A stretch of DNA of 63,992 bases, filler included, from Stramenopiles sp. TOSAG23-2 (lineage: Eukaryota): assembly GCA_900128395.1 (NCBI GenBank). It is 9 parts of 9 records of this genome, joined end to end, with 100 filler letters (N's around TTAATTAATTAA, not from the genome) between each part and the next. Parts side by side here need not be neighbours in the genome. Positions count along the whole stretch, not along the records: positions 42,866 to 49,890 come from LT650368.1; 8 more parts are not named here. One strand, 5' to 3'. Under the pieces are notes generated by a model that saw nothing but the letters and a program-made list of their open reading frames with translations, was not told the origin of the DNA and made no database searches. Below, piece by piece: positions 44,438 to 46,369 of this stretch (its first letter is position 1; each line of letters opens with the position of its first letter). Position numbers and translations under genes: made by a program.

Positions 44438-46369
44438 TACAGTGTAATATCAACAGTCAAACAGCCTGATTTTTTACATTTTTCCGAAGGCGTTTACAGA
44501 GTTCTTCAGCAAGTCCATCCCGGGTTAGGGATTGATCTTGGTGCAATGTACATTATGGAAGACTTCAATCGTTACTTGCTGTGCTCCATATTGCAGCAAG
44601 CTGCTCGCTTTGCCAGTGAGAAGCGATGCCCCTCACTGGTCGATTACGTGCAGGCTCCGAATAAAAGCCAGTCAAATAATTTTGCCATCCTTGCCCAAGA
44701 TGGTGCCAGGTACTTGGTCTACCACGATTCAGAGGATGGCTTGTACGATTCAGAGTATGGCTGGGAATCCAAGCATGTTGTCCAGCAGTATTTTGAAGCA
44801 CAGCTGGCTTTGTGGGAAACCAAAGATCCGACTGAAAAGAAGAATGGCTTCGACAAGTTTCTGAAAAAAATGCGGGAAGTGGAAAGCGACAAGTTTGCTT
44901 ATCCAGGCAATATTTCCGATAGGGATATCCAAATGGCAGTTCGTCTGTGCCTGCCGGGCGAAGTGGCCAAGCACGCTGTGAGCGAGGGAACAAAGTCAGT
45001 TACCAAGTTTTCTATTGCTTGTGGAGGTATTCAGTCTCGCTCCAGTTATATTCAGTCTCGCTCCAGTTGCGCTGGTCTACAGTTCGATGTTGATCAAATC
45101 GGTGCACTTATGACCCAGGCTACCAGCATGGTTGTGACACAGAAAGCCGCTTGCTACCTCAGCGCAGTCATGGAGTACATGTCTGCAGAGGTTCTTGAGC
45201 TCAGTGGAAATGCCGCTCGTGACCTTCGAAGTGGATGGGTTACACCGCGCCACATTATTTTCGGTGTCCGTGGTGATGAGGAGCTCGATATGTTTGTGGG
45301 AAAGTGTACTGTCATGCCAGGCGGTGTGATACCACATATCCACAAATCGTTGATTCCACAGAGTTCGCATATGTTCGACATGAAGGAGGATGACGAGGAA
45401 GACGAAGATTTGGAATGGGTTGGTACCGATTCATTCATACGGGTCCCCTATCATGGAGATAACTTTGAACGAATCACCAAACATCACATTAAGCGCCTGG
45501 CTGCGCGCGGTGGCTGTGTCAAAGTGTCACGGTTGATCTACAAGAAAGTTCGTGGTGTCTCGAGAGTCTTTCTCGAATCAATTATTCGCGATGCCGTTTG
45601 TAATATAAATATGGAGAGATCAAAAATAATAGCTCCAAGGCACATTTTGTCAGCATGTGCTCGTCAGGGATTCATGCTCTGGGGCACAGGGCGTCTCCCT
45701 TTGCCTACCAAGATCATACATCCGTGCCAGCGGAAAGGTCCCGATTTGGAGAATCCAGATAGCCAACGTGGTGGTTTTTTGCATGAGTTCAGCGTGCGAA
45801 GGGCGGCAGAAGCTGCAAAACGCGCTGAAGAATTTGGTGAGCTCTTTCCATGTTCAACGCTAACTTACGCAAAGTACTCTCGCTGCGACTTCAACGGATC
45901 GATCGAAGAGCATGAGAAAAAGCTTGCTGAAGCACTAGTGGCCGCGAAGAATTTAGCAAAGGAAAAAGCACTCCAAGAGGAGGAATATGCAAAAGAGGAG
46001 GCCGAAAAAGAACGCGCACAAGAGGAGGAGGCAAAACTAAAAGAGGGATACACCTCCCCGACTGACAAGGAAAAGAAAATTCGTCGTCTCCATTCTCAGT
46101 CGCTGGAGCTGGTGCGCAAAATGCAACGAAGCACGGAGCGAGTGATTCCTTTTTTGCCGATGTCAGAAATGTGCGCTGAGATAGGTCAGGATCACATGTG
46201 TGATCTTAAGTTTAGCCATGTTGCAATAAACCTGCTCGATGAGCTTCTTGAGACGTACTTGGTTGATTTGTTTGAGGACAGCAACTCGCTAGCCATTCAT
46301 AGCAAAAGAATGGCCGTAAAGCCCAATGACATCTGGCTCGCACGCCGAATTCGTAAGGAACTCAGTTAA
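44333..46369 (+). CDS. Fused histone quadruplet H2B-H2A-H4-H3 (single polypeptide)
   Basis: H2[27 protein letters not shown] and [34 protein letters not shown]2[11 protein letters not shown]...[23 protein letters not shown]...TPRHI...GDEELD...GGVIPHIH. H4: [39 protein letters not shown]...RQG. H3: [12 protein letters not shown]...EI.QD...DLKF...[27 protein letters not shown]. Confidence 0.95.

Follow-up and report, generated by a model that had tools for sequence, protein, structure and literature searches.

A predicted chromoshadow-like domain within the H2B fold of a fused histone quadruplet from Stramenopiles sp. TOSAG23-2

A gene encoding four fused histones contains a domain-sized segment within its H2B fold, and the segment is best read as a folded module of the chromo/chromoshadow type. 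The gene is located in a window (the whole stretch of DNA that was analysed, 63,992 nucleotides) from Stramenopiles sp. TOSAG23-2 (assembly GCA_900128395.1), and it is a fused H2B-H2A-H4-H3 histone quadruplet in one unbroken open reading frame (ORF) of 678 amino acids (aa). We place at roughly 0.6 the probability of the reading as a whole, in which the segment is a translated, selectively maintained and independently folding chromo/chromoshadow-type domain at the tip of H2B loop 2 (L2), leaves the histone fold intact on both sides, and would act as a module for protein contact. The parts of the gene, in positions of the window, are as follows.

44333..46369, + strand: fused histone ORF, 678 aa (ORF, Pfam, phmmer, alignment of relatives)
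44480..44620, + strand: H2B helix 1, loop 1 and helix 2, aa 50-96 (phmmer alignment to H2B; model helices 51-61 and 69-95)
44621..44905, + strand: insert in H2B loop L2, aa 97-191, a chromo/chromoshadow-like domain plus connecting helices (phmmer, alignment, models, structure search)
44681..44770, + strand: predicted three-stranded sheet of the insert, strands aa 117-123, 126-131 and 141-146 (both AlphaFold2 models)
44771..44884, + strand: predicted insert helices, aa 147-153, 155-163 and 166-184 (both AlphaFold2 models)
44906..45025, + strand: end of H2B L2, helix 3 and helix C, aa 192-231 (aligned from H2B residue 57; model helices 196-206 and 209-231)
45050..45370, + strand: H2A module, aa 240-346 (Histone_H2A_C at aa 316-345, phmmer, model)
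45455..45688, + strand: H4 module, aa 375-452 (alignment of relatives)
45689..46012, + strand: conserved segment after H4 (GRLPLP..HP.Q..GP....GGFLHEF) and Glu/Lys-rich linker, aa 453-560 (alignment)
46013..46366, + strand: H3 module, aa 561-678 (best PF00125 stretch at aa 559-674, alignment)

The gene is assigned as a quadruplet because Pfam and PDB sequences match the protein and because H4 and H3 modules are seen in aligned relatives, so that all four modules are found within one ORF. Pfam recognises the Histone family (PF00125, E 1.1e-25) in three stretches, plus Histone_H2A_C, and the best phmmer matches among all PDB sequences are single-chain H2B-H2A constructs (E 4.7e-44). When the protein is aligned with one of these, the single-chain H2B-H2A.Z chain 6k0c_D, aa 50-96 correspond to residues 7-53 and aa 192-341 to residues 57-200. 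Both this alignment and an AlphaFold2 model contain the helix 1-L1-helix 2-L2-helix 3 order of H2B and its helix C, head-to-tail with H2A, but L2, normally a few residues long, is not short. An earlier note, made from the sequence alone, had reported an insertion here (44624-44908, aa 98-192), and the phmmer alignment confirms it: 95 residues (aa 97-191) separate H2B helix 2 (..QQAARFAS) from helix 3 (ISDRDIQ), against 3 in the solved chain, and the strings that the note had quoted are found at aa 117-162. Loop residues on either side are retained (EKRC before the insert, YPGNI after it), which places the insertion point between K97-R98-C99 and P191-G192-N193-I194, at the tip of the H2B L2 loop.

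The insert is shared by a family of proteins. A profile of the insert recognises the segment, in the same place, in 21 of 71 collected proteins; it was built from 16 of those 21 members (the other five being P0002, P0058, P0060, P0064 and P0065), and it weakly matches two distant quadruplets at the same position (P0025, E 0.031; P0035, E 0.46). A word-indexed search yielded 56 related proteins, including metagenome quadruplets of ~750 aa with the same segment at the same site, and in remoter histone repeats helices 2 and 3 are 57-117 residues apart, while canonical-like fused gene models have no extra residues there. Within the insert, I119, K169 and P191 are invariant in all 16 aligned members, and F117, G121, W144, V150 and W161 are kept in 15 of them. 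An exhaustive phmmer search with the insert against 1.84 billion representatives returned 8 matches, 6 of them true, and all of these are histone repeats. P0059 (5271 aa) and P0062 (RTX/HCBP) were considered as insert relatives and rejected as summed weak repeats: their per-domain E values are at least 0.03 even in a 63-sequence file, and with the family profile P0059 scores E 14 and P0062 is lost. Among the relatives, P0012 (604 aa) keeps H2B(insert)-H2A and has a RING-finger region at its end (precomputed PF13639), P0010 (837 aa) apparently has two H4-H3 halves, and P0060 (87 aa) is 97% identical to aa 159-213 of the window protein and divergent afterwards.

The insert is predicted to fold by itself. 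When modelled alone by AlphaFold2 from 16 aligned sequences, it reaches a mean predicted local distance difference test score (pLDDT) of 82.9 and a predicted template-modelling score (pTM) of 0.74, and the model consists of a helix (aa 100-107), the three strands, and then the three helices listed above, the last of which (aa 166-184) would return the chain to the YPG motif ahead of H2B helix 3. The same elements appear in a 350-aa H2B-H2A context model (23 sequences; pLDDT 80.5, pTM 0.77), where the H2B-H2A handshake is complete around the insert, including both L1/L2 loop bridges. This context model superposes on solved single-chain H2B-H2A structures with template-modelling (TM) scores of 0.89-0.92 normalised by target, and with a root-mean-square deviation (rmsd) of 2.2 A and a TM score of 0.92 for 6k00_D. 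These predictions bear out the sheet-plus-helix fold that the earlier note had expected, with H2B helix 3 still packed on H2A, and the disorder that it had named as contrary evidence is not seen in the models, where the insert folds confidently. An independently folding domain, flanked by an intact histone fold, is part of the reading to which the probability given above applies jointly.

Structure comparison suggests which fold this is. VIA-align, a method independent of Foldseek, was used to rank all 48,161 representative solved chains, and five reach Z >=5: the Chp2 chromoshadow domain (6fto; Z 6.0, rmsd 2.7 A, 57 aligned), the HP1alpha chromoshadow domain (9cea; 5.7), GEN1 (5.5), an HP1 chromoshadow domain (5.5) and HP1 in the DIM2 complex (5.2). 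The first 28 rows include 23 named as chromo, chromoshadow, HP1, CHD/Chd1 or cpSRP43, and the other 5 are GEN1 (two), eEF3 and two Sac7d-derived binders, which are chromo-like as well; SH3 domains appear only at Z <=3.4. Re-scoring of Foldseek's top 1000 gave Z 6.3 for the Chp2 chromoshadow domain (58 of 66 residues) and 5.3 for that of Swi6 (1e0b). A chromo fold, that is, three antiparallel strands packed on one or more C-terminal helices, is present by prediction and has top matches at Z 5.2-6.3, while the sequence profiles of Chromo (PF00385) and Chromo_shadow (PF01393) do not detect it; because no sequence method reaches these Pfam families, the likeness is one of fold only. Since a Z below 8 may reflect a common arrangement, the case is built on how one-sided the ranking is and on matches that cover a ~60-residue domain almost completely, rather than on how large Z is. 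At the level of predicted fold, then, with Z at most 6.3, the chromo/chromoshadow-like pattern described by the earlier note is supported, as chromo and chromoshadow domains top the 48,161-chain ranking and the insert is modelled as three antiparallel strands followed by helices.

The composition of the insert points to a role in protein contact. The isoelectric point (pI) of the insert lies at 4.2-5.6 across all 16 members, each of which has more acidic than basic residues. When the three-aromatic cage of methyl-lysine readers is located by pattern alignment, only its first position (F117, kept in 15 of 16 members) is conserved; the position aligned with the cage tryptophan, 131, is aromatic in none of the 16, and its neighbour, position 130, which follows the YLV strand, is aromatic in 12. 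Given this acidity and an aromatic cage that is apparently incomplete, the most likely function is contact with other proteins, as in a chromoshadow domain, and methyl-lysine reading or DNA binding is less likely. Of the 'reader or dimerisation module' proposed in the earlier note, the reader is unlikely because the three-residue cage is apparently not kept, and dimerisation is a role that we would still infer. By analogy with published viral quadruplets, two quadruplet chains would form one nucleosome-like particle, in which the module would protrude, once per half-particle, beside the DNA-binding site common to H2B L2 and H2A L1. In the canonical nucleosome this site is near superhelix location 3.5. 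HP1 chromoshadow domains dimerise through a C-terminal helix and dock partner peptides in a groove, and the module may similarly make protein-protein contacts, either by self-association that bridges particles or by docking of a partner. Complex prediction with two insert copies scored 0.02 against a mark of 0.32; the supplied alignment was unused and the chain fold was uncertain in at least one run, so this result counts for nothing.

Several points weigh against this reading. A Z of 6 is within reach of unrelated small folds, for which the best Z without a clear match is typically 7-8, and the models were built from alignments of just 16 and 23 sequences. The Foldseek comparison proposed in the earlier note found no match to a non-chromo fold, but also no significant match of any kind (0 at E <=0.001 in PDB or BFVD), and its weak rows include Sac7d/Sso7d and an SH3 domain. 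Pfam places no family on the insert at E up to 1, nor on three inserts at E up to 10, and the insert profile finds 5 weak matches among PDB sequences (best E 0.1, none chromo), although HMMER filters discard very weak matches in such searches. A protein-atlas look-up of aa 95-193 gave no lead (best score 0.75, a histone cluster). The cage positions were placed by sequence pattern and recall rather than by superposition, and it is by analogy that we infer particle formation by the quadruplet and any binding by the module. Finally, a globular domain that is acidic and placed at a loop touching DNA might interfere with wrapping instead of decorating the particle.

The main rival, which we consider unlikely but which retains more weight than any other alternative, is that the insert is a small beta/alpha domain specific to this family, with a convergent SH3-like or chromo-like arrangement and a different role, for example as a built-in acidic shield or chaperone-like DNA mimic that covers the H2B-H2A DNA-binding surface until the particle assembles. 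Such an origin would accommodate the lack of a sequence-level tie to chromo families, the modest Z values and the Foldseek result, as well as the confinement of the insert to histone repeats in the exhaustive search; the acidity of all 16 members and their location in a DNA-contact loop would suit a shield. Chance convergence is nevertheless a poor explanation for an unbiased structural ranking that is topped almost wholly by one superfamily, and for best matches that span nearly the entire chromoshadow domain.

It is considerably less probable that the insert is a genuine chromodomain, recognising methyl-lysine on an adjacent particle or on a histone of the host. The fold class fits, as do F117 and a TWE-like GWE motif whose W144 is kept in 15 of 16 members; the second cage position, as placed by the pattern alignment, is however aromatic in no member, the best structural matches are chromoshadow domains and not chromodomains, and the H3 module of the same protein offers no canonical N-terminal tail for it to read. 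Less probable still is a DNA-binding chromo-like module that, in the manner of Sac7d/Sso7d or GEN1, would clamp nucleosomal or neighbouring DNA: both are among the structural matches (Z 4.0-5.5) and the module is located at a DNA-contact loop, but acidity in every member argues against it.

The preferred reading, a chromo/chromoshadow-type domain within the protein, presupposes that the insert is coding sequence, and the evidence supports its being translated and selectively maintained. GC content at third codon positions (GC3) is 0.55 in the insert and 0.49 in the whole gene, compared with 0.14-0.31 in the other 27 ORFs measured, and intergenic and upstream DNA has a GC content of 0.27. In three pairwise comparisons, between the window and two metagenome loci, the ratio of non-synonymous to synonymous substitution rates (dN/dS) is 0.18-0.37 for the insert versus 0.27-0.47 for the H2A module. 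Both edges of the insert are crossed unspliced by contigs from marine RNA libraries, which three studies had made as poly(A)-selected, oligo-dT-primed and plain cDNA: X1 record 1 (44526-44701) runs unbroken through the 5' edge, and X1 record 2 (44827-44995), X3 record 13 (44743-44991) and X4 record 19 (44774-45045) cross the 3' edge. None of these contigs contains a joint that skips the insert, so the splicing-out that the earlier note had raised as an objection is not seen. This RNA evidence consists of contigs, not reads, to which DNA contamination of the libraries may contribute, and positions 44702-44742 are covered by none among the RNA-library matches listed. The idea that the segment is an intron in frame, an artefact of assembly or part of a decaying pseudogene draws on a GTGAG..CCAG pair at 44616..44906 (GT 44616, AG 44905-44906) that could excise 291 nt in frame, on a fragmented assembly and on perfect tandem duplications close by, but it is largely refuted by exon-like GC3 unlike that of AT-rich non-coding DNA, by protein-level conservation and dN/dS, by RNA-library contigs that pass both putative splice sites, and by a spliced product whose L2 would fall five residues below the canonical length (a count from the phmmer alignment).

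The genomic setting of the gene is limited to a single contig. Paired runs of 44 N around TTAATTAATTAA separate the segments of the window, at spacings that decrease from 7156 to 7121 bases; the window thus consists of separate contigs of ~7.0 kb in descending order of length, and genes of different segments are not neighbours. The contig from which the histone gene comes (LT650368.1) contains an AT-rich, tandemly repetitive upstream stretch of 1.4 kb, the histone gene, and two neighbours identified by Pfam. Rfam and tRNA scans of the whole window found nothing.

7081-7180, 14237-14336, 21378-21477, 28511-28610, 35639-35738, 42766-42865, 49891-49990 and 57012-57111: paired 44-N spacers around TTAATTAATTAA
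42866..49890, no strand: contig that physically carries the histone gene, bounded by N44-TTAATTAATTAA-N44 spacers
44186..44433, + strand: 124-bp tandem duplication, two copies 99-100% alike (repeat scan)
47133-47948, - strand: SDR gene (Pfam)
48493-49866, + strand: FMO-like gene (Pfam)

Repeats surround and enter the gene. The 124-bp duplication includes the 5' leader and the start codon, extends over roughly the first 33 codons, and may be real or an artefact of assembly or amplification; its first copy opens an upstream ORF of 52 aa (44209-44367), and among the RNA-library contigs listed none bridges it. A perfect 21-bp tandem duplication in the H2B-H2A linker (45028-45068) is likewise spanned by no RNA-library contig, X3 record 14 starting at 45033 with preceding letters that are unlike the window. 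The AT-rich upstream DNA also has a perfect 173-bp tandem duplication (43355-43700) and a 30-bp repeat in about three copies (43214-43303). X3 record 12 is a GC-rich relative of the 5' part of the gene, matching it over 36 bases (44266-44301) and differing in the remainder, with loose ends in X1 and X3. The presence of such a relative in the same marine RNA libraries suggests that several family members may be expressed together in the sea.

Outside H2B, the protein differs from its relatives mainly around H4. Between H2A and H4, at 45380-45480 (aa 350-383), it is shorter by about 100 residues, among them a DEYQDLLVAASK..RLPEGALTPETL segment that is conserved in the relatives and RRHRRVLR from the H4 tail, so that the H4 module is without this part of its tail; the short H2A-H4 form is matched by X1 record 3 (45129-45635). 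Conservation across the family is highest not in a histone helix but at the end of H4 and in the segment that follows it (45641-45800, aa 437-489), where H437, L439, W450, G451, G453, R454, L457, H463 and E485 are invariant across 14 sequences. Ahead of helix N of H3, in place of a canonical N-terminal tail, there is a Glu/Lys-rich stretch (45890-46012, aa 520-560).

Whether a cell or a virus owns the gene was judged from several lines of evidence, and on balance a cellular genome is the probable location. The assembly is filed as that of a eukaryote, a EukProt gene model is identical over 91% of the protein, and other contigs encode proteins of a cellular housekeeping type (eIF2B-gamma-like, MRS2-like, malate dehydrogenase and an HMG-box protein); relatives of the eIF2B-gamma-like ORF are metagenome proteins at 78-99% identity, followed by Daphnia at 27%. 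No virus hallmark is found on the 7-kb contig of the gene, where the neighbours are SDR and FMO-like, and two metagenome relatives adjoin a bestrophin-like gene and other ORFs that also lack virus hallmarks. No relative with the insert was found in IMG/VR, where 0 of 20 giant-virus H2B-H2A loci carry it, and scans of IMG/VR with the SDR and FMO neighbours gave no relative; a tblastn search against a phage collection found no match. A giant-virus metagenome contig has a ubiquitin-H4 fusion (L003:3-545, - strand) divergent from an H2B-H2A doublet (L003:571-1287, + strand) with a canonical short L2. Two observations weigh against a cellular host. The GC3 of the gene (0.49) is far from that of its flanks (0.16-0.20), which argues against a settled host gene, and H2B-H2A-H4-H3 quadruplets have been published from a mimivirus-like metagenome-assembled genome (MAG; PMC9145170). 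A further proposal, which is speculative and rather improbable, is that a marine protist lineage, not a virus, expresses a single-chain nucleosome with an HP1-chromoshadow-like L2 module, and that the modules of neighbouring particles self-associate, compacting chromatin with no need for HP1 or histone marks.

Few protein structures are as constrained as histone folds, and H2B L2 is a point of DNA contact. If the preferred reading of a folded chromo/chromoshadow-type domain in L2 is correct, the nucleosome core would tolerate a folded module at its DNA rim, and the gene would be a natural case of a chromatin-protein-type module hard-wired into the nucleosome. A quadruplet in a eukaryote-filed assembly and in poly(A)-selected or oligo-dT-primed RNA libraries would also bear on the origin of viral histone repeats. 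The accessible text of one survey states that no fused histones have been confirmed in eukaryotes (Talbert et al. 2022, PMC9145170). If the protist proposal above were true, no fused core histone would have been confirmed earlier in a cellular eukaryote, and no earlier case would be known of a folded domain inside a nucleosomal histone fold.

Both histone repeats and histones that carry added modules are known, but a folded module inside a nucleosomal histone fold, an architecture that the earlier note called very unusual, was found described for no histone; the literature searched covers subscription journals and some supplements thinly. In the portions of these sources that are available, giant-virus metagenomes encode histone quadruplets (Talbert et al. 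2022, PMC9145170; Irwin & Richards 2024, PMC11222145; PMC13681535; PMC13088155), the order H2B-H2A-H4-H3 is given for MAG ERX552270.89 (PMC9145170, including a supplementary table), and published quadruplets form nucleosome-like particles in E. coli (PMC11222145). The same portions of the four sources do not mention an 'insertion' within a fold, and the family motifs are absent from the supplementary tables of PMC11222145 and PMC9145170, although alignment PDFs outside this scope might show them. The window gene resembles the giant-virus quadruplets in having four core histone folds in one chain and in the order H2B-H2A-H4-H3; it differs in coming from a eukaryote-filed assembly and in its linkers, which are much longer and partly conserved.

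Among histones with added modules, macroH2A, which is mentioned in PMC9145170, is likewise a core histone with an extra folded module that would decorate the nucleosome. The macro domain is, however, a C-terminal addition, whereas the module described here interrupts the fold at its DNA-contact loop. Precedents for a chromo-type module as an insert or accessory are eEF3 and New1, where it is inside an ABC domain, and GEN1 (VIA-align Z 3.9 for eEF3, 3.6 for New1, and 5.5 and 4.8 for GEN1), in matched regions that we take to be chromodomains, but none of these proteins is a histone and their roles differ. A long spacer within a histone fold is tolerated in TAF4, where helix 3 is far downstream of helix 2; that spacer is not known to be chromo-like, nor is TAF4 known to wrap DNA in the way of nucleosomal histones. 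The closest likeness is to the chromoshadow domains (PF01393) of Chp2, Swi6 and HP1alpha, which are acidic, share the predicted fold of three strands followed by helices, and provide the best structural matches. With these the insert has no detectable sequence or profile similarity, and it carries two additional helices, one N-terminal and a long one at the C-terminus (aa 166-184); above all, the HP1-family chromoshadow domain is C-terminal in a chromatin-binding protein, whereas this module is placed inside the histone fold itself.

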